From a virus (lineage: Duplodnaviria > Caudoviricetes), in IMG/VR virus record IMGVR_UViG_3300042260_000337: a DNA stretch of 64,000 nucleotides; one strand, written 5' to 3'. Under the pieces are notes generated by a model. It saw nothing but the letters and a program-made list of their open reading frames with translations. It searched no databases and was not told the origin of the DNA. Both the position numbers and the translations under genes were made by a program. Shown here one piece after another: positions 15,783 through 58,243 of this stretch (positions are counted from its first letter, which is position 1; each line of letters begins with the position of its first letter).

Positions 15783-16163
15783 ATGTCTATAGAAGAAAAA
15801 AAAGATGTTGATGTAGAGCGCCTCGAAAAGGCGCTTCATTTTTCAAATACAATGCAGACCTTCAATCTGGCAAAAAATAATCTCAAAGTTAAAACTCAAA
15901 ATCTTCTTTCATATTCTCAATATGGTGGAACTTTTAATATTACCCAAGAGTTCATTGGGTTTTTAAATGCAGTTAAATCTGCTGGTAGAAAAAATATAGT
16001 AATTCTAGACAAAAACGAAACTCCAATAAAAATCGAAGATGTGTCTGACTTTTTAGATAATGTTCTTTCTGTTTATTTTGAAGTGGTAAACGAATATAAT
16101 AATGAGTATCAAAAACTAAAAAGTTCTCGTAAGATAGAAAAGTTTTTGGACATAACAAAATGA
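15783..16163 (+). CDS. Hypothetical protein (126 aa), first gene of the enzyme island
   Basis: ATG 15783 follows AGGAG; ATGA overlap with the next gene. Confidence 0.7.
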   Translation: MSIEEKKDVDVERLEKALHFSNTMQTFNLAKNNLKVKTQNLLSYSQYGGTFNITQEFIGFLNAVKSAGRKNIVILDKNETPIKIEDVSDFLDNVLSVYFEVVNEYNNEYQKLKSSRKIEKFLDITK

Positions 16164-17017
16164 GCAGAGGCATTATAATTCTGGCAAACAATACCCCAGA
16201 TGTTAATTACGCAGCGATGGCTTGCTTATGTTCAGACTTTGCCAGACATAATTTGTCAAAGTTCGATGAAATTGCAATTATAACTAATTCAGAAACATAT
16301 GACGAAAATAAAGAACTGATTGATAAAAAATTTGACAGAGTTATAATTGATGACCATAAGCCATTTGTGAATATTAGATTGTTCAAGGATACTTCTTACC
16401 ATACATTCAAATCTGAATGGAATAATCATGGAAGGTCATCTGTATATGAATTATCTCCATATGATGAAACCTTGGTGATTGATAGCGATTACTTCGTTAT
16501 GAGTAATATATTGGACCAAGTATGGGGAAGCCAAAACGATTTTATGATAAACTCATCATTTGTGGATTTGGCTGGTCGTCAGGAAGAACGTCTTATTTAC
16601 ATAGACGAGTTTACTATTCCAATGTATTGGGCAACAGTATTCTATTTTACCAAATCTAAATTCAACGAAACATTGTTTACTCTTATAAATCATATAAGAA
16701 ACAACTATAAGTATTATTGCTTGTTATACAATTGCCCAAGTGCAATGTTTAGAAATGACTTTGTGTTTTCAATTGCATTACATATTATAAATGGAAATGT
16801 GGCAAATAATATCCCAACACTTCCATTTCAATATTTGAACAATAGTTTTGACTTGGACGATATATACAAAATAAATTCCTACAATGAAATTACCATGCTA
16901 TTTGCAAAAAAAACAGACGCTACCGATTATGTGTTTGGAAAAATAAAAAATATGGATATTCACATTATGAATAAAAAGGCCATATTGCGGCAGTTGTCGG
17001 AGTTTTTAAATGAGTAA
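16160..17017 (+). CDS. GT-A fold glycosyltransferase-like protein
   Basis: 'SPYDETLVIDSDYF' DxD motif and N-terminal 'RGIIILA' strand; paralog of 17010-17873. Confidence 0.6.
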   Translation: MSRGIIILANNTPDVNYAAMACLCSDFARHNLSKFDEIAIITNSETYDENKELIDKKFDRVIIDDHKPFVNIRLFKDTSYHTFKSEWNNHGRSSVYELSPYDETLVIDSDYFVMSNILDQVWGSQNDFMINSSFVDLAGRQEERLIYIDEFTIPMYWATVFYFTKSKFNETLFTLINHIRNNYKYYCLLYNCPSAMFRNDFVFSIALHIINGNVANNIPTLPFQYLNNSFDLDDIYKINSYNEITMLFAKKTDATDYVFGKIKNMDIHIMNKKAILRQLSEFLNE

Positions 17018-17873
17018 AGGTTATATATGCATTGCTCAGAATACCGCAGATCATGATTATTTGAACATGTCATATGCGATGGCGCTGAGTTTGAAAGCAA
17101 CACAGAAAATAAACAATGTGTGCCTGTGTGTTGATGCTCCTACAAAATCCATGCTCACTGGAAAGCACTATGCAGTTTTTGATGATATTGTAAGTATACC
17201 CTGGCACGACGATGCACAGTATAAGCCAACTTGGAAGATACATAACAAGTGGAAATACTCTCATATGACACCATTTGATGAAACAATAATTTTGGACAGT
17301 GATGTTGTATTTACTGAAAATATTGACCACTGGTGGAGCTACCTGTCAAAGCGAGACTTTTGGGCTTGCACCAACGTAAAAACGTTTCGTGGTGAAAATA
17401 TTACAGGGGACTACTACAGAAAGAAATTTACTGACTCTAACCTACCAAACATATACACAAATTTTACATATTTCAAACAATCCGACCTAACATATGAAAT
17501 AACCAGAATGGTTGAGTTCATAATGAAAAACTGGAATGAGTTTTACAAAAAATTTCTTCAAGGTGTAGGGCAAGAGTGGTTGAGCGCAGACTTGGCATAT
17601 GCCCTTGCTATTCGTCTGTTGGACGTTGAGAATGAAACATGTGATAATACCATTAAAGATGTTCCAACGTTTGTTCACATGAAGAGTTTTGTGCAGAATA
17701 TAAATATCAACAAAATAAATGCGGATTGGACAAAAAGCCTAACGAGCCAACTTTCAGATGATTTGTCTGTAACGATTGGTAATTTTAGGCAGGAAGTTCC
17801 AGTTCATTACGTTGAAAAACATTGGATGACAGAAGAAAAAATAAAGACATATGAGAGATTTCTTGGAATATGA
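17010..17873 (+). CDS. GT-A fold glycosyltransferase-like protein
   Basis: 'TPFDETIILDSDVVF' DxD motif, a late 'FVHMK' His and 'HYVEK'; resembles GT8/mannosyltransferase-like folds. Confidence 0.6.
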   Translation: MSKGYICIAQNTADHDYLNMSYAMALSLKATQKINNVCLCVDAPTKSMLTGKHYAVFDDIVSIPWHDDAQYKPTWKIHNKWKYSHMTPFDETIILDSDVVFTENIDHWWSYLSKRDFWACTNVKTFRGENITGDYYRKKFTDSNLPNIYTNFTYFKQSDLTYEITRMVEFIMKNWNEFYKKFLQGVGQEWLSADLAYALAIRLLDVENETCDNTIKDVPTFVHMKSFVQNININKINADWTKSLTSQLSDDLSVTIGNFRQEVPVHYVEKHWMTEEKIKTYERFLGI

Positions 17874-18445
17874 TAAAAAGCGTTACCAACAAAACAGTTC
17901 CGCTAAGATATGTCTATTTTAGCAACGAAGGAACAATCACAAAAATATCAAGTAAAAATGACGACGAAAGTGATGACATGTGGGCAACATTTGATATTGC
18001 AGATGTAAAGCCATTCATTGATGGTTCGTTCAAGTTTTCAGATTATGTGGTAAATAAAAATACAACGGACATGGGATACTCTATTGTTAAAAAGAGAGTG
18101 GACGTAAAAAGCCGTGCGATAGAAAGCCAGATACGAAAAATTACTACTTGTAAAGATGCTGAAATTATGATATTATTAGAACAAAATAGCATAAAGATAA
18201 AAGCAGCTAAAAGCGTAATAGAGAAAGATTTATCTTCTGACCAAGAAGTTATGATTGCTGGAAAATCAAGCCATCCATTTTTTATTACGATAAAGGATAG
18301 ACCAGATTTCATTTTACAAGAAGTTTCGGTCCCATATAACATACTGTTGACAGGAGAAACATTTTCTGAGTCAATACCATATAACCATTCAGCGGTTAGT
18401 ATCTATACACGACCGTATTTTAATACATATTCATTGGAGACATAA
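17870..18445 (+). CDS. Hypothetical protein (191 aa)
   Basis: Coupled by ATGA overlap upstream and abuts the next ATG; no motif recognised. Confidence 0.65.
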   Translation: MIKSVTNKTVPLRYVYFSNEGTITKISSKNDDESDDMWATFDIADVKPFIDGSFKFSDYVVNKNTTDMGYSIVKKRVDVKSRAIESQIRKITTCKDAEIMILLEQNSIKIKAAKSVIEKDLSSDQEVMIAGKSSHPFFITIKDRPDFILQEVSVPYNILLTGETFSESIPYNHSAVSIYTRPYFNTYSLET

Positions 18446-19426
18446 ATGGCAAAAATAGTAATCGGTGACTTAGATGTGTTTTATCTAAGCTATGATGAAC
18501 CAAACAAAGAAGAACATTGGGCGAATCTTTTGCAGAAGTTCCCGTTTGCTAAACGAGTGGATGGCGTCAAAGGATTTGACAATGCACATAAAGAATGTGC
18601 AAGGCAAAGTGAAACTGAACGTTTTATTACGATTGATGGCGACAATATTGTCAGCGACGAAAAGTTCTTTGACCTTGAAATTAGTATCCCAGAAAATACA
18701 AACATGGCAAACTCAGTTCTTAGTTGGTCGGCAAAGAATGTAGTAAACGGTCTGGTGTATGGAAATGGTGGAATTAAGTGTTGGCCAGTTCAACTTGTGT
18801 TGGACATGAAAACCCACGAAAACGCTGATAACGAATCAAAGAAGTTAGACTTCTGTTGGGATTTGAATTACATTCAAATGAACAATGTCTACTCACATGT
18901 GTTCAATGCTGGTTCTCCATTTCAGGCGTTCCGTTCAGGTTATCGTGAAGGTGTAAAGATGTCTCTGGATCAAGGACATGTTGTTCCAGCAAAGCAGTTC
19001 AAAAAACGTATATGGCCAAAGAACTATGAGCGTCTTTTGACTTGGTGCAATATAGGAGCAGACGTTGAAAATGGACTATGGGCCATATACGGCGCAAGAT
19101 TGGGATGCTTGGAAACTAATATAACAAAGTCGCTTCCAATTGATGGTATATCAAACTATGAATGGTTTAAGGATTATTTTGACGCTGAAATTCTTCCAGA
19201 ATTTAAAAATGGCGATGAGTATTGTAATAAAACCAAAGTTCACTGGAGCTACGATAAACTGTATGATGCCACACTTGATGTTGGCGACCAATTGATGGAT
19301 TCATTAGCAATGGAACTATGCGACCCGACTCCTGAGATGTCTGCGTTCTTCAAACGAGTTTATGTGAACCCACCACGGGTGGCAAACCCAATAGCCACCG
19401 AAAAACAAACTGGATGGGACAAGTAA
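18446..19426 (+). CDS. GT-A-like glycosyltransferase, paralog of the C-terminal domain of 40951-43392
   Basis: 'FYLSYDEPN', 'AKRVDGVKGFDNAHK', 'IDGDN' (DxD), 'NGLVYGNGGIKCWP', 'PFQAFRSGYRE'. Confidence 0.6.
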   Translation: MAKIVIGDLDVFYLSYDEPNKEEHWANLLQKFPFAKRVDGVKGFDNAHKECARQSETERFITIDGDNIVSDEKFFDLEISIPENTNMANSVLSWSAKNVVNGLVYGNGGIKCWPVQLVLDMKTHENADNESKKLDFCWDLNYIQMNNVYSHVFNAGSPFQAFRSGYREGVKMSLDQGHVVPAKQFKKRIWPKNYERLLTWCNIGADVENGLWAIYGARLGCLETNITKSLPIDGISNYEWFKDYFDAEILPEFKNGDEYCNKTKVHWSYDKLYDATLDVGDQLMDSLAMELCDPTPEMSAFFKRVYVNPPRVANPIATEKQTGWDK

Positions 19427-21012
19427 TGAGTAAAACTCTAGATGATTTTAACTGGGAACGGCAAAAAGGAAGTAATGACATAATATCGTCACATTCTAAT
19501 GTCGAAAATGTAAAAGTATTGCTTGATAGCAAGGGACCAGGATTTTGCCTAGCAAAATTCAAGCAAGTGACACTTCATTTGGGAACTGGGTTGGTGCATT
19601 CATGCCATCACCCTAGTCCCCATAAGATTGACAAAACCGAGTTAGAAAACAACGTAATGACATTATTCAATACGTCAAGATTGAAACAAGTTCGCAAGCA
19701 AATGCTAAACGGAGAAAGACCTCGCGAATGCGACTATTGTTGGCGCATTGAAGATAACAAAAGCACCAGCGACCGTCATTTCAAGAGTGTTGAGCCATGG
19801 GCGATTGGCGACCATGACAAAATTGCGTCATACACTGGCGACGAGGATATATTTCCCTCATATCTTGAGGTTGATTTTAGTAACGTATGTAACCTACAAT
19901 GCACTTATTGTGGACCAGAGTTCAGTTCAAAATGGGTTGAAGACCTTAAACATAACGGTCCATTGAAAGTTTTAGAGGGAACTCCAAGCGAAAGTTGGGT
20001 TCAGGGCTGGCAAGACTTAGAAACGCTAAACATAAAAAATCGTGATGTCAACCCTTATATTGATGCATTTTGGGAATGGTGGCCATCTGCATATCCACAT
20101 CTAAAACATTACCGAATTACGGGCGGTGAACCTCTGATGAGTAAAGAAACCTTCCGCAGTATGGATTGGTTTATAGAGAACCCAAACCCAAATCTTGAGT
20201 TCAGTATCAATACAAATCTTTCTGTTCCCGATAAATTGTGGGAAAAATTTGTTGAAAAGTTAAAGTTACTGAATGATGGTAAAACTGTTGCAAAGATTAC
20301 GGTTTACACCAGTGTTGAAGGATGGGGTGCAGCCGCTGAGTATGCAAGAACTGGTCTGGATTTTGAACTCTTTAAGCGTAGATTTGAAGAATTGGCTTCT
20401 ATAGGAAACGTCCGTTGTGTGATTATGGCCGCTTTCAATATATTTAGTGTCACTACATTTCAGAAACTACTTGAATGGGTGTATGAGTTAAAATGCAAGC
20501 ATAATACTAATGTTGGAGCAATAGGGATGGAAAAAGAAACTGGGTATGCGTTAGCATCTCCTAGTTTATCAGACCGTGAAACTCACAATCCAACTCTTGC
20601 TCGTTCATACGTAGTGGGGCTTGATATTCCATATTTGAGAAGTCCTGCCATGTTGGATGCACACAATATTTCGCATGAGTTGGTTGAAAAGTATTTGATA
20701 CCATCACTAGACTACATGGCAAGCCATGCTGCATGGGATTCTTGGAGTAATCATCAAGGATTTGAACGTCACGAAATTGAAAAACTTCGTAGAATTGTTG
20801 TTCATCGTATGTATCATAACAGAAAGAACGACCCAACCGACAGCCATTTTGAGACTCTTAAACAGCGGGCAATGTTTTACGACTTTGTAAATGAAAACGA
20901 CAAGCGCAGAGGGTCAAACTTTTTGAACTCGTTTCCTGAAATGACTGAGTTCTACCAGTTGTGTGAAGCCGCGAAAAAAGAGTTTATCTCGCTTCTTGGA
21001 AATAAACAGTAA
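19426..21012 (+). CDS. Radical SAM protein 1 with N-terminal twitch-type domain
   Basis: CxxxCxxC 'CNLQCTYC', 'ITGGEPL'; N-terminal 'FCLAKF...SCHH...CDYCW'. The start at 19426 (TAATG overlap) is preferred over 19414. Confidence 0.9.
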   Translation: MSKTLDDFNWERQKGSNDIISSHSNVENVKVLLDSKGPGFCLAKFKQVTLHLGTGLVHSCHHPSPHKIDKTELENNVMTLFNTSRLKQVRKQMLNGERPRECDYCWRIEDNKSTSDRHFKSVEPWAIGDHDKIASYTGDEDIFPSYLEVDFSNVCNLQCTYCGPEFSSKWVEDLKHNGPLKVLEGTPSESWVQGWQDLETLNIKNRDVNPYIDAFWEWWPSAYPHLKHYRITGGEPLMSKETFRSMDWFIENPNPNLEFSINTNLSVPDKLWEKFVEKLKLLNDGKTVAKITVYTSVEGWGAAAEYARTGLDFELFKRRFEELASIGNVRCVIMAAFNIFSVTTFQKLLEWVYELKCKHNTNVGAIGMEKETGYALASPSLSDRETHNPTLARSYVVGLDIPYLRSPAMLDAHNISHELVEKYLIPSLDYMASHAAWDSWSNHQGFERHEIEKLRRIVVHRMYHNRKNDPTDSHFETLKQRAMFYDFVNENDKRRGSNFLNSFPEMTEFYQLCEAAKKEFISLLGNKQ

Positions 21013-21016
21013 ATAA

Positions 21017-22432
21017 ATGCAACAACAGCTATCTGATTACAACTGGAATGTAAACTTAGAACAGCGACTTCAAAACATGAAGTCGCTGTTGAACTCTACT
21101 GGAACTGGATTTTGTTTGGCAAAATTCAAACAAGTTACTATGCATCTTTCTCTTGGCAAGGTGCATTCTTGCCACCATCCATATGCACACAAGATTGACC
21201 CAGTGGACGTTCAACAAAATCCAAGTTTACTGTTTAATACGCCAGTGCTGAAGACAGCTAGAAAAGAAATGTTGTCTGGTGAGCGCCCGTCAGAGTGTAA
21301 CTACTGTTGGAGAGTAGAAGATTCTGACGATGAAAACTTTTCTGATAGACATCTAAAAAGTTCCGATACCTGGGCAATTGACGATCACGATACCATTGCA
21401 TCTTACACTGGTGATGAAGATATATACCCATCGTATTTGGAAGTTAGTTTTAATAACGCATGTAATTTGAAATGTCTGTATTGCGGACCAGAGTTCAGTT
21501 CAAAATGGGCAGAAGAAATAAAGAGCAATGGGCAAATACCCTTACTATCAGGCACAAAAGACTTTGAAATACATAATTATTTTAGGCCAAATGCTATTAT
21601 AAAGAACAGAGAATATAATCCATACACTGAAGCATTTTGGAAATGGTGGCCAGAAGTATATAAGCATCTTCAGGTTTTTAGAATTACTGGCGGCGAACCT
21701 TTAATGAGCAAAGACACGTTTAAATCACTGGACTGGTTTATAGAAAACCCAAATAAAAATTTAGAATTATGTATCAATAGCAATTTCAGCGTCGAAGATT
21801 CGTTATGGAAAAAGTTTATTGACAAAATAATCACGTTGCAAAATTCAGGAAACGTTAAAACCATAACCATATATACAAGTGTTGAGGCATGGGCTGAACG
21901 TGCAGAATATATAAGAACTGGTCTTGATTTTAATTTGCTATTGAATAGAATTGATGAGTGTTTATCCAAGGGAGTTCGCGTGGATATTATGGCAGCGTTC
22001 AACATACTGTCATTATCATCATATAAGCAATTGTTACAATGGGTTTTAAGCAGAAAAAAAATATATAATAAAGATAAAACACTAATTGCAATAGATACTG
22101 CATACGTTCGTGGCCCCGACCATTTGGATGCAATATTTTTAACAAGTGACCTGTTAAATTACTTAAAAGATATTACAGATTATGTCAAACAAAATATTTC
22201 AAATGATGGATATCACATGTATGAATATGAGAAAGTATCCAGAATATATTCAACTGTTTTGAATAGAAAAATATCAACGCAATCTAAAATTAAATGCAGA
22301 GCAAAGTTTTTTGATTACATTAATGAACTTGATACTCGGTATGGCGTAAAATTTCTAAATTGCTTTCCCGAATATTCTAAATATTACAGAGTTGCAAAGA
22401 AAGCCAGAAAGAGATTTAAGGATATAAGATGA
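21017..22432 (+). CDS. Radical SAM protein 2 with N-terminal twitch-type domain, paralog of rSAM1
   Basis: 'CNLKCLYC', 'ITGGEPL'; N-terminal 'FCLAKF...SCHH...CNYCW'. Confidence 0.9.
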   Translation: MQQQLSDYNWNVNLEQRLQNMKSLLNSTGTGFCLAKFKQVTMHLSLGKVHSCHHPYAHKIDPVDVQQNPSLLFNTPVLKTARKEMLSGERPSECNYCWRVEDSDDENFSDRHLKSSDTWAIDDHDTIASYTGDEDIYPSYLEVSFNNACNLKCLYCGPEFSSKWAEEIKSNGQIPLLSGTKDFEIHNYFRPNAIIKNREYNPYTEAFWKWWPEVYKHLQVFRITGGEPLMSKDTFKSLDWFIENPNKNLELCINSNFSVEDSLWKKFIDKIITLQNSGNVKTITIYTSVEAWAERAEYIRTGLDFNLLLNRIDECLSKGVRVDIMAAFNILSLSSYKQLLQWVLSRKKIYNKDKTLIAIDTAYVRGPDHLDAIFLTSDLLNYLKDITDYVKQNISNDGYHMYEYEKVSRIYSTVLNRKISTQSKIKCRAKFFDYINELDTRYGVKFLNCFPEYSKYYRVAKKARKRFKDIR

Positions 22433-24497: not shown

Positions 24498-24920
24498 CTT
24501 TATCATGGTATAGTTTATGTTGTGCTTGAACATCCATACCATTAAGAATTCCTCCATTTTCCATTCTTCATTCTTGACCGCATGTAATGGGGTATTAACA
24601 AGATTGTTTACTGAATGAACCCATCTTGAAAATGTTGTCATTTTGATAAAGGTCATAAATGAATCTGCGTAAAATGTATTATAATTGTCAATAAAGCATA
24701 CCGTGTTTTTTTCTGCTCCATATATATAATCGGTGCGATTTTTTTCTGAAATATTATCTAATGAAAAACTTCTTGGTGAGCATATGACTCCCTTTACTTG
24801 AAGTTTTGTTTTTAGGGTTTCGCTGCTGATATTTTTCATTGCAAGTTGCCATGCTTTTTTATAATGGTTCGAATCTATTCTTGATTCTGGAATTATCCCT
24901 GTTATATATTGTTCAACCAT
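24483..24920 (-). CDS. Hypothetical protein (145 aa), possibly related to the C-terminal half of the 'RYD' family
   Basis: Overlaps the stop of 24913-25884 by 8 nt. Its C-terminal 'EEFLMVWMFKHNI' resembles 'HELIYDIFAKNNI' in 31514-32350. Confidence 0.55.
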   Translation of the reverse strand: MVEQYITGIIPESRIDSNHYKKAWQLAMKNISSETLKTKLQVKGVICSPRSFSLDNISEKNRTDYIYGAEKNTVCFIDNYNTFYADSFMTFIKMTTFSRWVHSVNNLVNTPLHAVKNEEWKMEEFLMVWMFKHNINYTMIKSIAT

Positions 24921-25884: not shown

Positions 25885-25902
25885 ATGATAAACTCCTTCG
25901 CT

Positions 25903-26880: not shown

Positions 26881-26885
26881 ATTCA

Positions 26886-26913: not shown

Positions 26914-26934
26914 TAATAATAGTAGGATTTAATT

Positions 26935-50545: not shown

Positions 50546-51948
50546 GCAATGAATATCCCAGTAAAACATTTTGTGCCTTGCCGTGGGTTCACCTAAGCAC
50601 CAGACCTGATGGTTCAATGCGAGTGTGTTGCACCGCAAACGCATCAAGTGTTGGCCCAACGAATGACAAAGAACATGGTGGTATGGTTGGTGTCCTCAAA
50701 GATGATATGGGAAAGCCAAGTAACCTCAACGTAACCGATTTCCTTACCAGTTGGAACAGCACGTATATGAAGAACGTGCGAAGACAAATGATGAATGGTG
50801 AAATACCGCCATCTTGCACCAAATGCTTCAAGGAAGAAGCCGCTGGCCACAATTCAAAAAGAATGTGGGAAACCAATTATTGGTCACAACGTGTTGACAT
50901 AAAACAACTGGTTGCCGATACAACTCCAGATGGTGAAGTTCCGCCGAAACTATCCTATATTGATTTAAGATTTGGAACAAAGTGCCAACTTGCTTGTGTC
51001 ATGTGCAGTCCACATGATAGTAGCAGTTGGATCAAAGACTGGATGGTGATACACCCACAAATTCAGAACCCATCCCTAAAAGAAAACACTCAGTGGGCAG
51101 ACAAAGGTTCCATCAACGGCAGTAGCTACAACTGGCACAGAAACAATCCTGTGTTCTGGCAGCAGTTTTATGAACAAATTCCAAATATGCAGCAAATTTA
51201 TTTCGCTGGTGGAGAAAGTCTTATCATTGATGAGCACTATGAGATATTGGAAGAATGTATTCGTCAGGGTCATGCCAAGAACTTAGAGCTACGATATAAC
51301 TCAAACGGCGTTGAATGGAGAGAAGACCTCTTTGACCTGTGGAAAGAGTTCAAACTGGTTCGCTTTCATTATTCCGTTGATAGTATTGGCGACATGAATA
51401 GTTATATTCGTTACCCAAGTGAATGGAAACGAACAGAAGAAGTATTTCATATCCTTGATAACGAAACCCCAGACCATGTAGAAATAACTGTAGCTTGTGC
51501 TGTGCAAGCACTCAACATATACTATCTGCCAGACTTTATCAAGTGGAAATTAGAACAAAACTTTAAGAAAATCAACATGTGGCCATTCGGCGCTGGCGGC
51601 ATAAACTATCACTTTGTGTATCATCCGCCTCACCTGAACGTCAAAGTGTTGCCAGCTTGGTTCAAAGCAGAGTGCCGTAAAAAATATGAAGAGTTTTATC
51701 CTTGGTGGGAAGAAAACTGGGAAAAAGGTATACCAGAATGGCATCGCGGTAAAGTCACGTTTGACATGTGGAAGAACGCTGGATATGGATTGAAGCGGTT
51801 AGAAGGAATGCTTCAATTTATGGAGAGTGAGGATTGGAGCAATCGCCTACCAGAGATGGAAGAATTTTTGAAGTTGTGTGACCGTCAACGCAATCAATCT
51901 TTTTCTGCTACATTCCCAGAAATGAAGGATATATTCAAATATGACTGA
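50542..51948 (+). CDS. Radical SAM protein 10 with N-terminal twitch-type domain
   Basis: N-terminal 'FCALPW...VCC...CTKC'; 'CQLACVMC', 'FAGGE'. Confidence 0.92.
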   Translation: MSNEYPSKTFCALPWVHLSTRPDGSMRVCCTANASSVGPTNDKEHGGMVGVLKDDMGKPSNLNVTDFLTSWNSTYMKNVRRQMMNGEIPPSCTKCFKEEAAGHNSKRMWETNYWSQRVDIKQLVADTTPDGEVPPKLSYIDLRFGTKCQLACVMCSPHDSSSWIKDWMVIHPQIQNPSLKENTQWADKGSINGSSYNWHRNNPVFWQQFYEQIPNMQQIYFAGGESLIIDEHYEILEECIRQGHAKNLELRYNSNGVEWREDLFDLWKEFKLVRFHYSVDSIGDMNSYIRYPSEWKRTEEVFHILDNETPDHVEITVACAVQALNIYYLPDFIKWKLEQNFKKINMWPFGAGGINYHFVYHPPHLNVKVLPAWFKAECRKKYEEFYPWWEENWEKGIPEWHRGKVTFDMWKNAGYGLKRLEGMLQFMESEDWSNRLPEMEEFLKLCDRQRNQSFSATFPEMKDIFKYD

Positions 51949-53257
51949 TAGATTGCATTGCCCAATGAGTTATGCGGTGTATAAGTTCCAACCAGAAATT
52001 GGAGAATTTTCCGCTTGCTGTGACGCAGTTGTGTATAAATTCAATAAAGACTGGTTTGAAGAATTGGGGCCAGATTATTTTGAAAAGTTTCCAACTCTTA
52101 TCGACCGTAAAAAAGCATTATACAATGACGAGCGGCACATTGACTGCAAGCAATGTTGGGAAAAAGAAGACATCGGACTTCGTAGTATGCGTCAAATATT
52201 TGGACCACGGTATACGAGTTTACATAATAACCGAAATTTGTTAGTTGACAAGGCATACGTGTCGCGTGTGGAATTATGGATGAACTCTACTTGTAATGTC
52301 GGATGCTTTATGTGCAACTTGGGTAACAGTAACACTCTTCGAAAAATATGGAGTGACACGTTTGATTCAAATGGTCACGATGGAAAAGGGTATGATAGTT
52401 GGATAAACCAAAACAACTACCAAACGGACTATAGAGAAACGTTCACTGGATACATGATAGACTTTGCAGTCAATGCATTAAAAAATGCAGAGCATGGAAT
52501 GAATATCGCTTATTTGGGTGGAGAGCCGACACTTCACAATGAAATGTATGACCATGCTGACATTTTTATTGAGGCAGCAAAAGAAAATGTGAAACTAGGA
52601 AAAGATTTCATAATACAGATTGTGACAAATGGAACTAGTAAACCAAAATTGAACGAACGGTTCATGGGGATGTTTCAGAAGTATAAAGAAGCTGGTTGGA
52701 ATACATCCATAATGTTGAGCCAAGATGCGGCAGACAAATATGTTGATGTGCGACATGGTTCAGACTTCAACGCAATAAAAAACAATTTTTCATCTTGGAT
52801 ATCTGCCAATAGCCTTATTGACAGCATAAAAAGTCATACGGTAATTAGTAATTTGAACCTTCCGTATATGGACAACATGGCAAGATACTTGCATGATACC
52901 ATTTTAAATAATTACATTGGCGATAGAGAATTAGAAATAAACTTTAATACATTGACACATCCTAAATGGATGCATTTAAAATATCTTCCACGAAAATATG
53001 CTGAAACTCAGATACTAAATGCAAAAGATATTCTGACAACGGTAAAATCTGAATTTGGTATAAGGATTAACACAGAAGTATTTGATGAGATATTAAGAGT
53101 ATTGCCCGAACAAATATCCCAAGACGATGCAGAAATGATTTTTTCTAAATACAAATATGTTGCAGCACAATACAAAAAAGTGTATAATGGTTGGGATTTC
53201 TTTGAAACATTTGAACACTTAAAACCATTTGCAGAAGAGTATGGAATAGATATATGA
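51941..53257 (+). CDS. Radical SAM protein 11 with N-terminal twitch-type domain
   Basis: N-terminal 'HCP...ACC...CKQCW'; 'CNVGCFMC', 'LGGEPT'. Confidence 0.88.
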   Translation: MTDRLHCPMSYAVYKFQPEIGEFSACCDAVVYKFNKDWFEELGPDYFEKFPTLIDRKKALYNDERHIDCKQCWEKEDIGLRSMRQIFGPRYTSLHNNRNLLVDKAYVSRVELWMNSTCNVGCFMCNLGNSNTLRKIWSDTFDSNGHDGKGYDSWINQNNYQTDYRETFTGYMIDFAVNALKNAEHGMNIAYLGGEPTLHNEMYDHADIFIEAAKENVKLGKDFIIQIVTNGTSKPKLNERFMGMFQKYKEAGWNTSIMLSQDAADKYVDVRHGSDFNAIKNNFSSWISANSLIDSIKSHTVISNLNLPYMDNMARYLHDTILNNYIGDRELEINFNTLTHPKWMHLKYLPRKYAETQILNAKDILTTVKSEFGIRINTEVFDEILRVLPEQISQDDAEMIFSKYKYVAAQYKKVYNGWDFFETFEHLKPFAEEYGIDI

Positions 53258-54465
53258 GTTTTTGCGCTATAAACGACAAAACCGAAAAGAAACTGATGGT
53301 GATATGGGACTTAGGCAGAAAATGCACATATGCCTGTAGCTATTGCCCGCCACATAGAAAGAATAGTTGGAGTGCGGTTGCAAGTTTTGAAGAACTGAAA
53401 AAGACCGCTGATGACTTGGAGCGATACAGCGAGTTGTTGAATGAGTATCGAGACACTCCGTTTCGAGTCTCTGCCAGCTTCACTGGCGGCGAACCAACAG
53501 TAAACCCTGCGTTCTTTGATTTCTTGGTATACCTTCAGGAAAAATACCCACACTGGAACCGAACACTGACCACCAACGGATTTTACTCAGAGAGAAAACT
53601 TCGTTTGGTTATGAAGAACACTAACTTCACAACCCTAAGTTACCACTGTGAAGGCTCACCCGAACAAAAGAAGCGTGTCCGAGAAAACATCAAGATTATG
53701 GTGGAAGAAGGATACGGCTTCAAGGTAAACGTTATGTTTCATGAGCGCCAAGATTATTTTGATGAGTGCGTTGAACTCTGTAAATGGTTTGACGAAATGG
53801 GTGTGAAGTATATCCCGCGTATTATTGGTGACCAAGGCGACATCAAACAAGGTCTAAAAGACAAGACAGTTCATACATATACCGCCGACCAAATGAAATG
53901 GTTTACTGACTATTGGAATGCCAAAAATGGCAAGAAGGTGGAAAGTAAAATCGGCATACCAAACGAAAAGGTAGTGGGACAGACTATCGGACGCCCATGC
54001 TGCGGCGATAGGAAGATGGAAATTCTTGACAACGATGAATGGGTCCAAACTAAGTTTATCACCAACAACAACTTCCAAGGATGGAGTTGTATGATTAACT
54101 GGTATTTCCTGTATATTCACCAAGAGATCGACAAGATTTGGTTTCACCAGACTTGTCAAGTGAATCTTAATGGCGAAGTGAACCCCATATGCAACGTGAG
54201 TAATTTTGGGACTTTTATTGATGGCATGGAAACTCAAATGAAATCTGGTAGCATACCTTACATACGATGCCCAAAGACACACTGTGGTTGCGGTCTATGC
54301 GTTCCGAAAGCAAAAACAAATGATGTTGCGTTGGCACTATTCAAGTCTCATACAAAGAATATACAGCCTGAACTTATGGAAACAAAAGACCATCAAAATG
54401 ATTTGGGTTCGCTGAAGCACATGGTTGAATTGTATGACAAATCAAATGGCAACGAGACAATATAA
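53254..54465 (+). CDS. Radical SAM protein 12 with C-terminal Cys-rich SPASM-like domain
   Basis: 'WDLGRKCTYACSYC', 'FTGGEPT'; C-terminal 'GWSC...TC...CPKTHCGCGLC'. Confidence 0.9.
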   Translation: MSFCAINDKTEKKLMVIWDLGRKCTYACSYCPPHRKNSWSAVASFEELKKTADDLERYSELLNEYRDTPFRVSASFTGGEPTVNPAFFDFLVYLQEKYPHWNRTLTTNGFYSERKLRLVMKNTNFTTLSYHCEGSPEQKKRVRENIKIMVEEGYGFKVNVMFHERQDYFDECVELCKWFDEMGVKYIPRIIGDQGDIKQGLKDKTVHTYTADQMKWFTDYWNAKNGKKVESKIGIPNEKVVGQTIGRPCCGDRKMEILDNDEWVQTKFITNNNFQGWSCMINWYFLYIHQEIDKIWFHQTCQVNLNGEVNPICNVSNFGTFIDGMETQMKSGSIPYIRCPKTHCGCGLCVPKAKTNDVALALFKSHTKNIQPELMETKDHQNDLGSLKHMVELYDKSNGNETI

Positions 54466-54476
54466 TAGGAGATAGG

Positions 54477-55178
54477 ATGATACTTGAATGCGAAATATCT
54501 GGGCAAAAGATTGACTTTGATATACCAGAAAAATATAAGAAGATAGGCGTAAATTGTAGTGGCGGCGCAGACAGTAGTATTCTCCTGTTGATGGTAATTC
54601 AATACCTTGTTGATAACAACCGAACTGATACTACGGTATCCGTTACAACTTGTTCTAATGACAAGAAGGGTAGATGGAACGGTAGACGTGCTGCTGATGT
54701 AATTGAATACGCAATGAACAAGACCAAGTTTCAAAACTTCGATTTGCATTATACATATTATCGTGACGTTCAAGACGAGAAATACTTTCATGAGGTAGAA
54801 AACAAGCTATTTTCTGATGGCAGAGTAGATATGTTCGTTAGTGGAATAACGAGTAACCCACCTATCGGGGAAACGGTTGAAAACATCAAAGGTCAGACGA
54901 TTGTGTTGTCTGATGATATGCTTCCGTCTAGGAATGGCACTAACCACCAACTATGGTATTACGATAATGCAAAAGCATTTTACACTCCATATGCCAACGT
55001 TGATAAAAGATTTGTCGCGTCTATGTATAATAAATATGACGCAAATGATTTGTTTGATTTGACTCGTAGTTGTGAGTCAATCCCCGACGAAGGGGAAGAC
55101 ATATCAGTTTTTGAAAAGACACCATGTGGTAAGTGCTGGTGGTGTTTAGAACGTAAATGGGCATTTGGGAGATTCTAA
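54477..55178 (+). CDS. QueC-like PP-loop ATP pyrophosphatase (copy 1)
   Basis: PP-loop 'VNCSGGADSS'; 'LTRSCE', 'CGKCWWCLERKWAFG'. Confidence 0.75.
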   Translation: MILECEISGQKIDFDIPEKYKKIGVNCSGGADSSILLLMVIQYLVDNNRTDTTVSVTTCSNDKKGRWNGRRAADVIEYAMNKTKFQNFDLHYTYYRDVQDEKYFHEVENKLFSDGRVDMFVSGITSNPPIGETVENIKGQTIVLSDDMLPSRNGTNHQLWYYDNAKAFYTPYANVDKRFVASMYNKYDANDLFDLTRSCESIPDEGEDISVFEKTPCGKCWWCLERKWAFGRF

Positions 55179-55891
55179 TGAGTTTGGTTCTTACAGGAAA
55201 AAGTGGAGAGACCGTAGAAATCGTTCTACTTCCGAAATACAAAAAGGTTGCAGTAAATTGTAGCGGCGGTGCAGATAGTAGTATACTCCTATATATTCTT
55301 GCCAAATACATAAAGGATAACAATCTTGATGTCAAGTTGAGTGTGTTGACATGCAGCACCGATGTAAAAGATCGTTGGACTGGCAGAAAAGCAGAACTTG
55401 TTACCAATTACATAATTGAAAATGTTGGTTCTGGAATAATAGATATGCATTATATCTATTTCAGAGAACGACCAAAACTTGAAGATTTCCATGAAATAGA
55501 AAATTCGTTGTTTTCTGATGGTAGAGCGCACCTAATCGTAAGTGGTATAACATCGAACCCGCCAGATGGGGCATCGGTAGAAGATATTGACGGCAACACA
55601 ATAGACTTGTCTTTGGGAGCGCAAGCAAACAGAAATGGGTCGGACCATGACATATGGCATATTTCTACCGATGGCAAAGGAGACTTTTGGAGTCCATTTG
55701 CGAATGTGGATAAGAAGTTCATAGCAGACCAGTATGATGCGTATGGAGTGAGAGACACGCTTCTTCCTCTCACACGAAGCTGCGAAAAGAAAACTCCATT
55801 GGATGCAAAGTTTGACCCAATGTTTGAGGAAACTCCTTGTGGCATTTGTTGGTGGTGCTTAGAACGAAAGTGGGCATTCGGGTATTTCTGA
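55178..55891 (+). CDS. QueC-like PP-loop ATP pyrophosphatase (copy 2)
   Basis: 'VNCSGGADSS', 'LTRSCE', 'CGICWWCLERKWAFG'; ATG 55178 in a TAATG overlap. Confidence 0.75.
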   Translation: MSLVLTGKSGETVEIVLLPKYKKVAVNCSGGADSSILLYILAKYIKDNNLDVKLSVLTCSTDVKDRWTGRKAELVTNYIIENVGSGIIDMHYIYFRERPKLEDFHEIENSLFSDGRAHLIVSGITSNPPDGASVEDIDGNTIDLSLGAQANRNGSDHDIWHISTDGKGDFWSPFANVDKKFIADQYDAYGVRDTLLPLTRSCEKKTPLDAKFDPMFEETPCGICWWCLERKWAFGYF

Positions 55892-57096
55892 TGACTGATA
55901 AGCGTTATGTATGCAGCAAAATGTTCACAGATATGAACATAAAATTTCCATATAACTGTGTGAAAAATTGCTGCAAATCCAACGATTATGTATCTTCGGT
56001 AGAAGATTTGAAGTCTGATGATTTTTTTATTTTCAACACCGAATATATGCGCCGTAAAAAAGACATGGTTCTGAATAACCAACTTCCAACTGGTGGATGT
56101 GATACATGTATAAAAATGGGAGACCACAGTTTATTTGAAGAATGGAACGTGTGGGGACGTGATATGCAAGATGATCACGACATACTAGTAGATGATATGT
56201 TCAATACATACGAAATGGTGTTATCTAGTGCATGTGATTTGAAATGCATTTATTGTTCACCTAAAGATAGTTCAAGTTGGGCGAAAGAAAAGGGTGTTCC
56301 GCAAAACAAAGGAAATGATGAATGGAAACACCTAGTTATTTCTAAATTAATCTCATCATTGAAAACAAAAGTATTCAGAGACGATAACATATATACATTT
56401 TTTTTCAGTGGCGGCGAACCAACATATAACCCAGAAACATTGGATTTTGTGAATGAAATATTAAAATATGTTCCAACCGACCGAACACGAATTTGTATAA
56501 GCACCAATGCAAATACCAAACCTAAAGTATTCAAAAAATACTTGGATGCTATACAATCCGACTTGAGCGTGAATTGGATATTTGATTGCAGTATAGATGG
56601 AATCAAAGAAGTATGCGAGGCAATAAGATACGGTATTTCTTGGAACACAGCAATTAAAAACATAGAAGTATTACTTCAACAGCCAAACGTAACGGTCAGA
56701 ATATCTCCGACCGTAAATCTATACAGTGTTCCAACTATGAATGAATATATCAAATATTTTATTGAATTATTTGACAAATATGGTAAAATACATCACGAGA
56801 TGTTTAATTACAATATGGCACAAGAGTCGGGAATGTCTCCTGCTAACTTACCATCAGGGTATAAAAAATGTCTTGATGAACCAATTGAACAATTGAAAGA
56901 ATTGGGCATATCTTATTATGAACATTTAGAAAATGTAAGAAATATAATAGGAACTGACCACAACGAATATAAAACACAATGTATGAAAACTACATTTGAA
57001 TATTTCAAAACAAAACGCCCAACCACTAATTGGGAGGAATTATTTCCTCACATAGTAGATATAATAGGAAAAAATGACGGAAATAAACAAAGATAG
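55891..57096 (+). CDS. Radical SAM protein 13 with N-terminal twitch-type domain
   Basis: N-terminal 'VCSK...NCC...CDTC'; 'CDLKCIYC', 'FSGGEPT'. ATG 55891 in a TGATG overlap. Confidence 0.88.
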   Translation: MTDKRYVCSKMFTDMNIKFPYNCVKNCCKSNDYVSSVEDLKSDDFFIFNTEYMRRKKDMVLNNQLPTGGCDTCIKMGDHSLFEEWNVWGRDMQDDHDILVDDMFNTYEMVLSSACDLKCIYCSPKDSSSWAKEKGVPQNKGNDEWKHLVISKLISSLKTKVFRDDNIYTFFFSGGEPTYNPETLDFVNEILKYVPTDRTRICISTNANTKPKVFKKYLDAIQSDLSVNWIFDCSIDGIKEVCEAIRYGISWNTAIKNIEVLLQQPNVTVRISPTVNLYSVPTMNEYIKYFIELFDKYGKIHHEMFNYNMAQESGMSPANLPSGYKKCLDEPIEQLKELGISYYEHLENVRNIIGTDHNEYKTQCMKTTFEYFKTKRPTTNWEELFPHIVDIIGKNDGNKQR

Positions 57097-58243
57097 TCTG
57101 TATTGGTCGCAATACGATTTTACAAAAATACCATTTGACGACTTAGTTTCAGTGGGACAGAGAACCCTTCTCTATCGTGATTTGTTTTCGGTGAGTTGGC
57201 TACTTGGTAGGTTCTGTAACTACAAGTGTTCATATTGCTGGCCATATGCCAGAAGTGACAAAAAGGACCATCGCCCCACTGCCCTCTGTCTAGCTACTAT
57301 AGACGAAATAAAAAGACAGGCCAGAGATAACGGATTCAACAGCTTTCATTTCAGTCTATCGGGTGGCGAACCAACATTCCATCCTGGTTATTTAGATATG
57401 TTGGGTCACCTAGCAAATGATGTAGAAAATACAAACTTTACCAGTATTCATATGACTACAAACATGGCACGTAAGATGGATTGGCATCAAAAATATTGTG
57501 ATATTGCGGCTAAATTCAATCGTGCATCAATCACTGCGAGTTACCATAGTGAGTTCGCAGATAAAGACGAGTTCGTAGATAAACTGCATTTGTGTATGGA
57601 GCACGATGTTCAGGTAACAATCAATATGGTGTTGGTGCCTGAATGGTTTGATAGAGACTGGCAGAACGCACTGTATTTTCATGAGCGTGGAATAAACGTC
57701 ACGTTGAAACCACAAAGTGATACATCGGCCAGTAGGGTAGTAGATGGATACACGCCAGAACAACTTGCTATCATGCGCAATGGAATGCCCCAGAGAGACT
57801 ATACGAAGGCCATACAAGAGCAACGTGGCATCAAGGTAGTCAGACCCACACCGAAGCTAGGAAGCCTCTGGAAAGCCGATATGGAAGCAGGAGACGATAA
57901 GTCAGTTCCAGCTATGATGCAAGTTGAGTTTCAAGATAGCACTGGACAGAAGTGGTATATGGACCAAGCAGAACGATTCAATGCTTTTGGCTTCAACAAA
58001 TTCAAAGGATGGGAATGTTCTAGTGGATTTCGTGGCATCATCATCCGTGAGCCTGATGGGTCAATAAAGCGTTCATATAGCTGTTCTGACGAACCCCTTG
58101 GGTATATTGAAAGCGGGTTCAAGTTATTTGATTCCCCGAAACCTTGCATAAGTGAAAGCTGTGTATCAAGTGCAGATAGTAAAATACCGAAACGAAAGCC
58201 GGGAGCGAAAATTCCACTGTATCCAAAAGACCCTATAAAGTAA
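57074..58243 (+). CDS. Radical SAM protein 14 with C-terminal Cys-rich domain, related to rSAM12 and rSAM7
   Basis: 'WLLGRFCNYKCSYC', 'LSGGEPT'; C-terminal 'GWEC...SC...CISESCVS'. Confidence 0.9.
   Translation: MTEINKDSLYWSQYDFTKIPFDDLVSVGQRTLLYRDLFSVSWLLGRFCNYKCSYCWPYARSDKKDHRPTALCLATIDEIKRQARDNGFNSFHFSLSGGEPTFHPGYLDMLGHLANDVENTNFTSIHMTTNMARKMDWHQKYCDIAAKFNRASITASYHSEFADKDEFVDKLHLCMEHDVQVTINMVLVPEWFDRDWQNALYFHERGINVTLKPQSDTSASRVVDGYTPEQLAIMRNGMPQRDYTKAIQEQRGIKVVRPTPKLGSLWKADMEAGDDKSVPAMMQVEFQDSTGQKWYMDQAERFNAFGFNKFKGWECSSGFRGIIIREPDGSIKRSYSCSDEPLGYIESGFKLFDSPKPCISESCVSSADSKIPKRKPGAKIPLYPKDPIK

Follow-up and report, generated by a model that had tools for sequence, protein, structure and literature searches.

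The island occupies about 42 kb of the window (the whole 64,000-nucleotide stretch that was analysed) and comprises 44 ORFs in the ORF listing, from g06 (ATG at 15783) to g49 (stop at 58243), 36 of them on the + strand and 8 on the − strand; its host is an uncultured jumbo phage. Packing is tight: most of the ORFs abut or overlap, and only 8 gaps of 15 nt or more are present inside the island. Upstream, with a gap of 21 nt between g05 and g06, lies a structural operon (g01-g05, 3..15731, + strand): g01 (3-3788), a baseplate wedge gene (phrog_10646, 5e-140) matching in tblastn the baseplate wedge proteins of Rak2/GAP32-type jumbo phages; g02 (3792-13196), encoding a 3134-aa virion protein that matches the PA5oct 'virion structural protein'; and g03-g05 (13209-15731), encoding Ser/Thr-rich fibre-like proteins. 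All five have syntenic homologs in G007, a complete IMG/VR jumbo phage of 342.6 kb. The island ends at a bidirectional intrinsic terminator (58246..58263) located between the convergent genes g49 and g50, a perfect palindrome with a 7-bp G+C-rich stem and a 4-nt loop, bordered on opposite sides by an A-run and a T-run. The original prediction of about 45 tightly coupled genes running directly from the structural operon to a perfect bidirectional terminator is borne out by this layout. The conserved right boundary is g50 (58269..59144, − strand), a ThyA gene outside the pathway.

The gene order includes a conserved 5′ block (g06-g10, 15783..19426, + strand), found in the same order in three related contigs (L001, L002, L004) and in G007, with a small protein without family (g06), two GT8-like GT-A proteins carrying DxD (g07, g08), a protein of no family (g09) and a 'SYxEP' GT-A protein (g10). 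It is followed, in 19414..24497 (+ strand), by three N-terminal-twitch radical SAM genes (g11, g12, g14; NF033640, CX3CX2C) and g13. The variable middle (g15-g31, 24483..38413; Pfam and NCBIfam families) has the lowest GC of the island (0.30-0.34) and is swapped for other genes in G007; g15, g25 and g31 have no assigned family. Next come a conserved block (g32-g36, 38512..45363, + strand), with homologs of g32-g34 in L001 and of g32-g36 in G007, and a 3′ radical SAM block (g37-g49, 45360..58243, + strand; Pfam Radical_SAM hits). A conserved frame (g06-g12, g32-g36, g43 and g49) flanks a replaceable middle, an arrangement resembling, by analogy, the cassette variation of surface-glycan loci. 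None of the 44 ORFs encodes a membrane protein.

Profile searches matched Radical_SAM in 14 island proteins, the number predicted originally, and CX3CX2C is present in all 14. Nine are N-terminal-twitch paralogs (NF033640 type), all of which keep four N-terminal Cys (alignment A1); the NF033640 scan covered five of these nine, and all five passed the 170-bit cut-off (g11, 299; g14, 354; g39, 377; g43, 415; g48, 172 bits). The g12 protein is 47% identical to g11. Further radical SAM genes are g18 (N_Twi) and g29 (with a C-terminal SPASM) in the variable middle and g36 in the conserved block; the 3′ block runs g37, g38, g39, g40, g41 (no family), g42 (FkbM), g43, g44, g45, g46/g47, g48, g49. The g43 protein shows 78-86% identity to its best 120 metagenome homologs, and g43 and g49 share 58-67% identity with their Bdellovibrionota orthologs; g38 and g49 have weak viperin- and MoaA-like similarity. 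No characterised close relative was found for any of the island's radical SAM enzymes, and a sequence relation of the twitch enzymes to BtrN was not detectable in PDB searches. SPASM/twitch enzymes are typical peptide maturases, NCBIfam shows weak similarity to maturases of sactipeptides and ranthipeptides, the best PDB sequence match of the N_Twi profile is SkfB, and the neighbouring genes encode long Ser/Thr-rich structural proteins, all of which would fit direct modification of a peptide or virion protein (RiPP-like cross-links, epimerisation, methylation). We consider this very unlikely: every maturase score falls far under its cut-off, an RRE/PqqD domain is absent from 14/14 enzymes in profile searches, the island's few gaps showed neither a precursor-like small ORF nor a repeat peptide, and the constant partners of these enzymes, in phages and bacteria alike, are glycosyltransferases and nucleotidyltransferases.

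About nine GT-A-like transferases are encoded in the island. The model of g08, a paralog of g07, matched glycogenin, LARGE1 and UGGT at 1e-8 (Foldseek), that of g10 matched WrtF, SunS, RmlT, TarS and PBCV-1 A64R at 1e-4 to 1e-3, a PBCV-1 capsid glycosyltransferase being among its structure matches, and the TM-scores of these GT-A fold matches were low (0.3-0.5). The paralog of g10 is the C-terminal 'SYxEP' GT-A domain of g34, an 813-aa protein of the conserved block. The DxD motifs are invariant (alignments A2 and A3). The predicted pairs of DxD and 'SYxEP' proteins were recovered with GT-A folds, and the five predicted 'RYD' proteins form two paralog groups, g16/17/24 and g26/28; in the structure atlas, g16 lies near GT92, GT25 and GT8 and near viral clusters labelled 'capsular polysaccharide biosynthesis'.

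The donor-synthesis and tailoring genes include a cassette in the variable middle encoding a short RuBisCO-like protein (g19, RLP; RuBisCO_large profile, 3e-28), a nucleotidylyltransferase (g20), a cupin-like protein (g21), a GDPD-like protein (g22) and a kinase-like protein (g23); on other phage-like contigs, the RLP-nucleotidyltransferase pair recurs by GT25/GT2, KdsA/KdsB-like and FkbM genes. Two sugar-1-phosphate nucleotidylyltransferases were identified with the NTP transferase profile, one of them fused to a HAD domain (g27). The same region encodes g30, a HisC/CobD-like PLP enzyme (aminotransferase class I/II profile), and the conserved block a NodU/TobZ-type carbamoyltransferase (g33; Carbam_trans_N 2e-39, Carbam_trans_C 4e-53). 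Of the enzyme classes assigned at first reading, the two nucleotidyltransferases, HAD, RLP, carbamoyltransferase and PLP enzyme were all matched by profiles, as was one of the two methyltransferases (FkbM, g42); the other, g35 (class-I methyltransferase-like), stays at the motif or sub-threshold level, its C-terminus resembling Methyltransf_31 clusters with a score of 0.94. The same level applies to the cupin g21, the phosphodiesterase-like g22 (HRG motif), the kinase-like g23 (HGDFTFDN motif; Bud32/RIO-like at 1e-10, under the cut-off), the 2OG-like g37, the two SGNH proteins (g13, an SGNH-like motif only, and g32, DUF6071) and the QueC-like PP-loop pair g46/g47 (SGGxDS and a C-terminal Cys cluster, alignment A9).

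This enzyme set is like that of aminoglycoside and nucleoside antibiotic clusters (TobZ/NodU-type carbamoyltransferase, aminotransferase, APH/Bud32-like kinase, HAD, nucleotidyltransferases and glycosyltransferases), and twitch radical SAM enzymes such as BtrN are found in aminoglycoside-type pathways. The product might be a free small molecule of nucleoside, aminoglycoside or sugar type, released or kept intracellular during infection, with a possible use against competitors, host defences or grazers. The soluble nature of all the island proteins, the weak similarity of g38 and g49 to viperin and MoaA, which act on nucleotides, and the high identity levels of g43 and g49 (58-86%), which fit a fixed small substrate, agree with this reading. 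It is nonetheless improbable: neither an exporter nor a resistance gene is present, about nine transferases exceed what a small molecule would need, and a cassette-variable middle at a fixed post-fibre position across lineages suits a surface polymer better.

Hypermodification of DNA or nucleotides, with a glycan or other adducts on bases, was weighed in the same way. Phage GT-A enzymes, whose genes often neighbour those of thymidylate synthase homologs, of APH-type kinases and of a second glycosyltransferase, can glycosylate 5hmC, and DNA glycosylation is known for phage GT-A enzymes that have their top PDB match, the PBCV-1 capsid glycosyltransferase, in common with the island (bioRxiv 10.1101/2023.12.21.572611); the island abuts ThyA, and its QueC-like PP-loop proteins and QueE-/viperin-like radical SAM enzymes show weak similarity of this kind. 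Against this, g50 scores above both equivalog cut-offs for ThyA (NF002497, 347 bits against 327; TIGR03284, 344 bits against 108) and relatives carry ThyX in its place, which favours plain dTMP synthesis over hydroxymethylation. Profile searches found no TGT/DpdA, QueD or FolE in the window, and neither TGT nor Tet_JBP among five large contigs of relatives, of which two are complete (a weak test, the Tet_JBP control having matched nowhere). Since the island is also joined to structural, not replication, genes, and its bacterial homologs are placed among GT2 genes, a DNA target seems remote.

The late-type promoter boxes predicted earlier were only partly recovered. The T4 late consensus TATAAATA is not enriched (3 sites, 6.2 expected); a different box, NATAAATA, has 16 sites, about 10 of them correctly oriented and within about 50 nt of the start of the gene downstream, including one ahead of the structural gene g03 (13211-13218) and others at the heads of island sub-operons. 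A divergent CATAAATA pair lies between g17 and g18 (26886..26913), with like pairs or single boxes at 33783-33806, 38470-38477 and 25904-25911. Judged from sequence, the NATAAATA sites are putative promoters.

The island does not stand alone. It is an enlarged form of a module whose core recurs in aquatic phages, across hundreds of contigs, and in the chromosomes of Bdellovibrionota, predatory bacteria of the Bdellovibrio type. A gene for the terminal enzyme, g49, is present in at least 581 stretches of viral DNA; large contigs of relatives have 14-18 radical SAM genes, and the versions of close relatives are equal in size or larger (about 55 kb in G007, where synteny extends from the baseplate wedge gene to ThyA). 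Carrier phages include Vibrio phage K566/K567 and Ralstonia phage RsoM2USA. In this window, and equally in L001, L002/L004 and G007, the island follows immediately on fibre/baseplate genes, a position conserved in three phage lineages. In Bdellovibrionota, the core genes (g34 C-terminus, g35, g36, g43, g49) adjoin GT2 genes and co-occur with two GT2 families, SDR, B12-rSAM and, in one locus, a PMT_2-type GT-C; these GT2 and PMT_2/ArnT-like neighbours indicate an envelope glycan in the bacteria. The phage enzymes might likewise remodel the host envelope, acting during infection on undecaprenyl-linked O-antigen/capsule units or on the LPS core, and the altered surface might block superinfection or adsorption of progeny to lysing cells. 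GT8 and GT2 are enzyme families classically associated with LPS, KdsA/KdsB-like genes occur in an RLP-containing relative, and PMC7029224 reads the GT/radical-SAM cassettes of the pelagimyophage 'host recognition cluster' in this way. Such a target is compatible with the lack of membrane proteins, since soluble GT-A enzymes also use undecaprenyl-linked host intermediates. We regard it as unlikely, however: no flippase, polymerase, ligase, priming transferase or other membrane protein is found among the 44 ORFs, the island continues the late structural operon with the same promoter-like box, an unusual timing for surface conversion, and 42-55 kb is a very large cost for exclusion.

The island's probable function is to synthesise and tailor a sugar or glycan, based on the two GT-A folds, the nucleotidylyltransferases, the carbamoyl- and methyltransferases and the bacterial clusters among GT2 genes. 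This part of the original proposal is supported; its other part, the virion as acceptor, is plausible, its chances falling slightly short of even. The virion is favoured by the fibre/baseplate synteny in the three lineages, the NATAAATA box that g03 shares with the sub-operons of the island, the absence of membrane proteins, the canonical ThyA and the lack of TGT/TET in relatives. Gene content is established, as are the folds, the synteny and the distribution; we infer a soluble cytoplasmic pathway with the following substrates, product, timing and acceptor: unusual nucleotide-activated sugars would be made by the short RLP, the kinase-like protein, the HAD domain and the two sugar-1-phosphate nucleotidylyltransferases, and moved by the roughly nine GT-A-type transferases (GT8-like g07/g08, 'SYxEP' g10/g34 and the five 'RYD' proteins). 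The product would be heavily tailored by the 14 radical SAM enzymes through oxygen-independent chemistry (e.g. oxidation, epimerisation, deoxygenation, C-methylation), carbamoylated by g33, methylated by g35 and g42, and possibly amidated or converted to an amidine by g46/g47 and g30. The likeliest acceptor would be a virion protein encoded in the neighbouring fibre/baseplate module, whose synthesis and decoration would both fall late in infection. This explanation as a whole, a soluble sugar pathway with such an acceptor, is given an even chance.

As had been supposed, no biochemically described pathway matches this composition. The nine twitch paralogs share the architecture of NF033640 N_Twi_rSAM, an N-terminal 4-Cys twitch followed by the CX3CX2C core, a family that was defined computationally; the island has nine copies plus five other radical SAM types. 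BtrN-type enzymes, radical SAM proteins with one auxiliary cluster, act on a sugar/aminocyclitol, but their twitch domain is C-terminal and not N-terminal as in the island. TobZ/NodU O-carbamoyltransferases combine Kae1-like and YrdC-like domains and use sugar hydroxyls as acceptor; g33 carries both carbamoyltransferase domains (Pfam), but scores 142 bits against the 1000-bit NodU equivalog cut-off. Similar modules have been mentioned in passing by metagenome papers. The pelagimyophage 'host recognition cluster' (PMC7029224) is likewise a large variable region by tail-fibre genes with GT8-type and radical SAM cassettes, and 12 radical SAM genes had already been noted in one marine viral genome of T4-like type (PMC5332604). 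In their excerpted text these papers list genes only, with Fe-S cluster demand or host O-chain modification as readings (the latter, in PMC7029224, being the only published reading of similar islands), and make no mention of Bdellovibrionota. The phage described here differs from the pelagimyophages, as it belongs to a jumbo lineage that is distant from Rak2/PA5oct and about 340 kb in genome length. In phage DNA glycan hypermodification by GT-A/GT-B enzymes (bioRxiv 10.1101/2023.12.21.572611, Pyle et al., where the term 'radical SAM' is absent), GT-A genes also cluster with sugar-modifying enzymes, sometimes near thymidylate synthase; in contrast, no partner of the 5mYOX/TET or hydroxymethylase kind is present in the window, which has a canonical ThyA. 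Virion glycosylation is described for mycobacteriophages (Freeman et al. 2023, cited in PMC12619734). Virion-glycosylation systems act on structural proteins, as the island would in the favoured reading. To our knowledge, none of the PBCV-1, Mimivirus and mycobacteriophage systems uses radical SAM enzymes or comprises some 44 genes. The fibril glycans of Mimivirus are a further case of virus-encoded virion glycosylation. As proposed for the island, these systems, the capsid glycosyltransferases of chlorovirus PBCV-1 among them, work in the cytoplasm with soluble virus-encoded GT-A and sugar-nucleotide enzymes, and their genes lie next to structural ones.

The 44 ORFs of the island (g06 to g49; ATG at 15783, stop codon at 58243; 36 on the plus strand and 8 on the minus strand) overlap or abut in most cases, and begin 21 nt after the end of the structural operon. 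The original prediction of tightly packed enzyme genes placed straight after the structural genes was confirmed, as was the bidirectional terminator at the end of the island, a 7-bp G+C-rich palindrome with A and T runs alongside, facing the convergent ThyA gene g50 (58269-59144, minus strand) that follows directly. The structural operon encodes a baseplate wedge protein (g01, 3-3788; match to the PHROG baseplate wedge family at 5e-140), whose nearest cultured relatives are in Rak2/GAP32-type jumbo phages at about 30% identity; a 3134 aa protein (g02) matching a "virion structural protein" of PA5oct; and the Ser/Thr-rich fibre-like proteins g03 to g05. The source of the window is an uncultured jumbo myovirus.

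The island belongs to a module with a wide distribution. No cultured phage matched the DNA of the island or of the related contig L002 at near identity, and the protein search with the radical SAM enzyme g43 gave only weak matches: in Ralstonia phage RsoM2USA, in Vibrio phage K566/K567 and in one viral contig from a single cell. Small versions of the module are present in these cultured Ralstonia and Vibrio phages, at genes 199-204 of RsoM2USA and at about 161.5-166 kb of K566/K567 (OZ196521). Metagenomes contain more than 3800 homologs of g43, the best 120 being 78-86% identical, and relatives of the radical SAM gene g49 were found in at least 581 IMG/VR stretches. Among the matches listed, the g49 loci typically have 6-8 radical SAM ORFs within 10 kb, and conserve the right boundary (Thy, g51, g52, g54, g55). 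A compact version of about 16 kb, with the order and place seen in the window, occurs on contigs of 174 and 215 kb (homologs of the fibre-like g04/g05, g06-g07-g08-g10-g34C-g35-g36...g43...g49, where g34C is the C-terminus of g34, then a convergent ThyX gene). The more distant IMG/VR contig L001 encodes g07, g08, g10, six tandem genes of the N-terminal-twitch radical SAM family NF033640 (N_Twi, to which g43 belongs), DUF6071, a carbamoyltransferase and a protein resembling g34; ahead of these genes lies a short match to the C-terminal end of the structural protein g03. The complete genome G007 (342,607 bp) has terminal repeats and matches the whole window in gene order, with identities of 39% for g01, 43% for g02, 37-74% for g06-g10 (g09 lowest), 46-74% for g32-g36, 65% for g43, 76% for g49 and 69% for ThyA. 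Its island measures about 55 kb and differs from that of the window in the middle section. Comparison with G007 and the other relatives therefore divides the window's island into a conserved frame and a replaceable centre, the latter including the RuBisCO-like protein (RLP) cassette, the "RYD" proteins, g27 and g29-g30. Five large relatives have 14-18 radical SAM genes each; 14 is a normal number for the lineage, and the window is a large, not an exceptional, example. The earlier statement that no phage pathway of this composition and size had been described holds for biochemistry, where no description of the pathway exists, but relatives with similar islands are common. Two metagenome studies (PMC7029224, PMC5332604) mention, between them, viral radical SAM cassettes and a viral genome with 12 radical SAM genes.

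The predicted 14 radical SAM products were all recovered, each with a match to Pfam Radical_SAM (PF04055; E-values from 1e-4 to 3e-14, with g11, g12 and g44 slightly under the gathering score) and the CX3CX2C motif. Nine are N_Twi paralogs (g11, g12, g14, g18, g39, g40, g43, g44, g48), with a SPASM-type cysteine domain in N-terminal position: Pfam SPASM matches fall at residues ~10-95, before the Radical_SAM domain. The five proteins scored against the whole-protein NF033640 model passed its curated cut-off of 170 bits (g11 299, g14 354, g39 377, g43 415, g48 172 bits), and g12, g18, g40 and g44 were placed in the family by paralogy. In alignment A1 the nine paralogs all keep C11, C29, C75, C78 and C132/C136/C139, and they share the NF033640 architecture of an N-terminal four-cysteine twitch and a CX3CX2C core; as a locus-search query this alignment was too divergent. 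The remaining five enzymes are g38/g45/g49, which form one group and are weakly viperin- or MoaA-like; g36; and g29, with a classical C-terminal SPASM domain. PDB profile searches with g10, g36, g43, g49 and g46/47 found nothing nearer than generic radical SAM or PP-loop folds and, judged by sequence, the radical SAM enzymes of the island are all remote from every solved structure. Direct modification of a peptide is a minor alternative for these enzymes: RiPP maturases are recognised by an RRE/PqqD domain and a precursor peptide gene, but no such domain was found in profile searches of the island's radical SAM proteins, and no gap in the island is big enough to hold a precursor gene.

Three groups of putative transferases had been proposed from sequence motifs, and structural comparisons support them to different degrees. 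The two "DxD GT-A" proteins (g07, g08) were corroborated: the AlphaFold model of g08 (pLDDT 70) matches glycogenin, LARGE1, UGGT and LH3 (1e-8 to 1e-6, prob 1.0, TM 0.4-0.5), one Asp of the DSD motif is invariant in the GT8-like g07/g08 family (alignment A3), and the GT8-like profile reaches the glycogenin sequence at E 0.13. For the two "SYxEP" proteins (g10, g34; GT2-like) a GT-A fold is likely, but the Pfam score did not reach the threshold (Glycos_transf_2, 19.9 bits vs a cut-off of 23.3). The g10 model matches WrtF, SunS, RmlT, TarS and the PBCV-1 capsid glycosyltransferase (1e-4 to 1e-3, TM ~0.3), D64 and D66 (DGD) are invariant in the family formed by g10 and the g34 C-terminus (alignment A2), and the g10 profile gave no PDB sequence match. 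The third group, the five "RYD" proteins, consists of g16, g17, g24, g26 and g28; the atlas model of g16 has viral "capsular polysaccharide biosynthesis", GT92, GT25 and GT8 neighbours. Within the island, only the annotated g28 (34844-35806, minus strand) begins with a "transmembrane-like" segment, which probably results from a start codon placed too far upstream: when g28 is aligned with its paralog g26, the real start would fall near 35713, and such a start leaves an 18-nt divergent gap to g29 with two overlapping opposed TATAAATA boxes (a near-palindrome; 35719-35732).

The rest of the predicted enzyme inventory was confirmed in part. Profiles support g20 and g27 as sugar-1-phosphate nucleotidylyltransferase-like (g27 fused to a HAD phosphatase), g42 as an FkbM methyltransferase, g30 as a HisC/CobD-like PLP enzyme, and g33 as a NodU/TobZ-type carbamoyltransferase (Carbam_trans_N 137 bits, cut-off 24; Carbam_trans_C 180 bits, cut-off 27), under the NodU equivalog cut-off (142 vs 1000 bits); the labels cupin, phosphodiesterase, kinase, 2OG oxygenase, SGNH, PP-loop and "second methyltransferase" have a motif or a sub-threshold score as their basis. 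The candidate form IV RLP g19 (28299-29339, plus strand; 346 aa) scores above the cut-off for the RuBisCO large-subunit catalytic domain (PF00016, 99 bits vs 30) but is missing most of the N-terminal domain; the alignment shows KPKAGL and FIKEDE, with HFQR where HFHR is expected, and no named RLP equivalog was reached (OiaX, 74 vs 700 bits; MtnW, 46 vs 409 bits). It belongs to a short RLP family of about 1800 metagenome proteins (330-400 aa), repeatedly adjoining a nucleotidyltransferase and glycosyltransferases (loci L168 and L169), once on a 493-kb contig; on unrelated phage-like contigs, the RLP-nucleotidyltransferase pair again has GT25/GT2, KdsA/KdsB-like, FkbM and radical SAM genes as neighbours. 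Salvage of SAM by-products was considered for this cassette, whose RLP, cupin, APH-like kinase, HAD and aminotransferase mirror MtnW/D/K/X/E. It was rejected as the main reading because MtnA-, MtnB- and MtnN-type genes are absent, the nucleotidyltransferases resemble sugar-1-P enzymes, and the RLP-nucleotidyltransferase pair recurs beside glycosyltransferases elsewhere. Donor synthesis, as originally proposed, is the better reading, and the short RLP may have a new function in nucleotide-sugar synthesis. L168, a 66-kb phage-like contig with an RLP/GT25 island, also encodes a homolog of the curli protein CsgF (16554-17065); curli genes have likewise been reported in pelagimyophages (PMC7029224).

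Bacteria have the same core. Species-representative genomes were scanned for g43, and orthologs 58-63% identical were found in many Bdellovibrionota, including complete 2-3 Mb chromosomes, at loci also encoding homologs of g49 (62-67%), g36, g45, g46/47, g34C, g35 and sometimes g33; the Bdellovibrionota carriers are so far all MAGs. The N_Twi family occurs in 27 of the 121 sampled Bdellovibrionota genomes, with 7-16 copies in individual genomes and none in 14 control genomes. The bacterial cluster is most often accompanied by two GT2 families of glycosyltransferases, an SDR and a B12-radical SAM protein, and one locus includes a PMT_2-type GT-C. The maximum-likelihood tree built from g43 orthologs unites the phage sequences in a single clade (99/98), nested among Bdellovibrionota and sister to Bacteriovoracaceae (97/98); the direction of transfer between phages and bacteria is only suggested, since the root rests on very long paralog branches. 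Nine GTDB MAG contigs of up to 161 kb (L005-L008, L028, L030, L032-L034) carry the phage-type module under the labels Flavobacteriaceae, Neisseriaceae, Planctomycetota, Rickettsiales, Gammaproteobacteria, Verrucomicrobiales, Acidimicrobiaceae and Chloroflexota. All but L028 are in the tree, within the phage clade, and these contigs are probably phage DNA mis-binned into MAGs. Literature searches on Bdellovibrio with radical SAM, and on cyanophage with carbamoyltransferase, found nothing relevant. The constant partners in phages and bacteria are glycosyltransferases and sugar-nucleotide enzymes, with no RRE or precursor peptide; consequently, we consider that the system quite probably synthesises a sugar or glycan with heavy radical tailoring, a free metabolite being a minor alternative for its product.

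The thymidylate synthase locus beyond the terminator is occupied by ThyA in the window and in G007, and by ThyX (Thy1) in L002, L004 and a 174-kb JGI contig, a non-orthologous displacement at a fixed position. Further right, the HNH endonuclease gene g53 (60475-61050, minus strand) separates g52 from the DUF2201 gene g54, with a 321-nt gap alongside; it looks like a mobile homing-endonuclease insertion, because g52 is followed directly by g54 in many related loci. GC content climbs from ~0.37 and reaches 0.43-0.50 across g54 and g55 (the MoxR-AAA and DUF2201/VWA genes; window positions 60000-64000), and the long mirror ORFs opposite them (61089-62477 and 62535-63659, both plus strand), which have no family match, are probably artefacts of composition. 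Two more strong hairpins with A/T-rich arms alongside lie between minus-strand genes (59478-59526 and 62457-62525), where they probably terminate the transcription units of g52 and g55.

The acceptor of the glycan may be the virion, the host envelope or DNA. Phage GT-A enzymes can glycosylate 5hmC and are often encoded near thymidylate synthase genes (bioRxiv 10.1101/2023.12.21.572611), a precedent for DNA as the acceptor; against it, the ThyA of the window is canonical and relatives have ThyX at the same position. DNA hypermodification in phages needs a hydroxymethylase/TET-type oxygenase, or DpdA/TGT and preQ0 genes, and the island shows neither set: profile searches of the window did not find TGT, QueD or FolE, TGT was not found in five related contigs (G007-G011), and a Tet_JBP search of related contigs was negative, with an uninformative control. 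Decoration of the host envelope is the published interpretation of similar pelagimyophage regions (PMC7029224), and is consistent with the LPS-type glycosyltransferase families and with the bacterial context of the module. Wzx/Wzy- or ABC-dependent O-antigen and capsule loci, however, need a set of membrane proteins (a priming transferase, a flippase or ABC transporter, a polymerase or ligase), whereas none of the 44 island products has a credible transmembrane segment (the two weak hydrophobic stretches are the g28 start-codon artefact and the Rossmann motif of g35). These fully soluble proteins are compatible with decoration of the virion, which is also favoured by the position of the island, fixed behind fibre/baseplate genes in at least three lineages (with fibre-gene adjacency in four genomes), by the 21-nt junction, by a promoter-like box common to a structural gene and the island, and by the virion glycosylation of chloroviruses, mimivirus and mycobacteriophages.

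The "late-type" promoter boxes initially reported are a mixed case. The window holds no excess of the T4 late consensus (TATAAATA and GATAAATA occur 3 times each vs ~6 expected), but the placement of NATAAATA near start codons fits: about 10 of its 16 sites precede a start codon, correctly oriented, by no more than ~50 nt, and positions of this kind make up ~2% of the sequence. Among these sites are one before the structural gene g03 and the pairs located in the island's three divergent gaps. NATAAATA is informative only by its position relative to gene starts, and these boxes are promoter-like, with a putative function and timing.

A broader scheme proposes a dedicated "radical glycan" pathway, independent of oxygen, that phages would have in common with predatory Bdellovibrionota. 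Its core (the g34C transferase, the methyltransferase-like g35 and the radical SAM enzymes g36, g43 and g49) would build a previously unknown sugar; growing sets of N_Twi paralogs would diversify this sugar on the attack apparatus, namely phage fibres/baseplate and the predator surface; the short RLP would feed a new nucleotide-sugar route; and the phage copies of the module would derive from a Bacteriovoracaceae-like donor. With all these steps taken jointly, we regard the scheme as rather doubtful. The module is abundant in aquatic viromes and connects phages to predatory bacteria, so that its product may have a bearing on host recognition, particle stability in water or defence evasion. The question can be addressed at the bench, since small versions exist in cultured phages and the module is present in many Bdellovibrionota genomes (MAGs so far). 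A virion glycan would open up a family of 14 or more radical enzymes that are as yet uncharacterised, among them a computationally defined family without known substrate, and a new context for RuBisCO-like proteins. If the product is a virion glycan, the island would also surpass in size every virus-encoded glycosylation system so far known from bacteriophages, and be the first reliant on radical SAM chemistry. Virus-encoded glycan synthesis beside structural genes was already known; what is new is a version dominated by radical SAM enzymes and common to phages and predatory bacteria.
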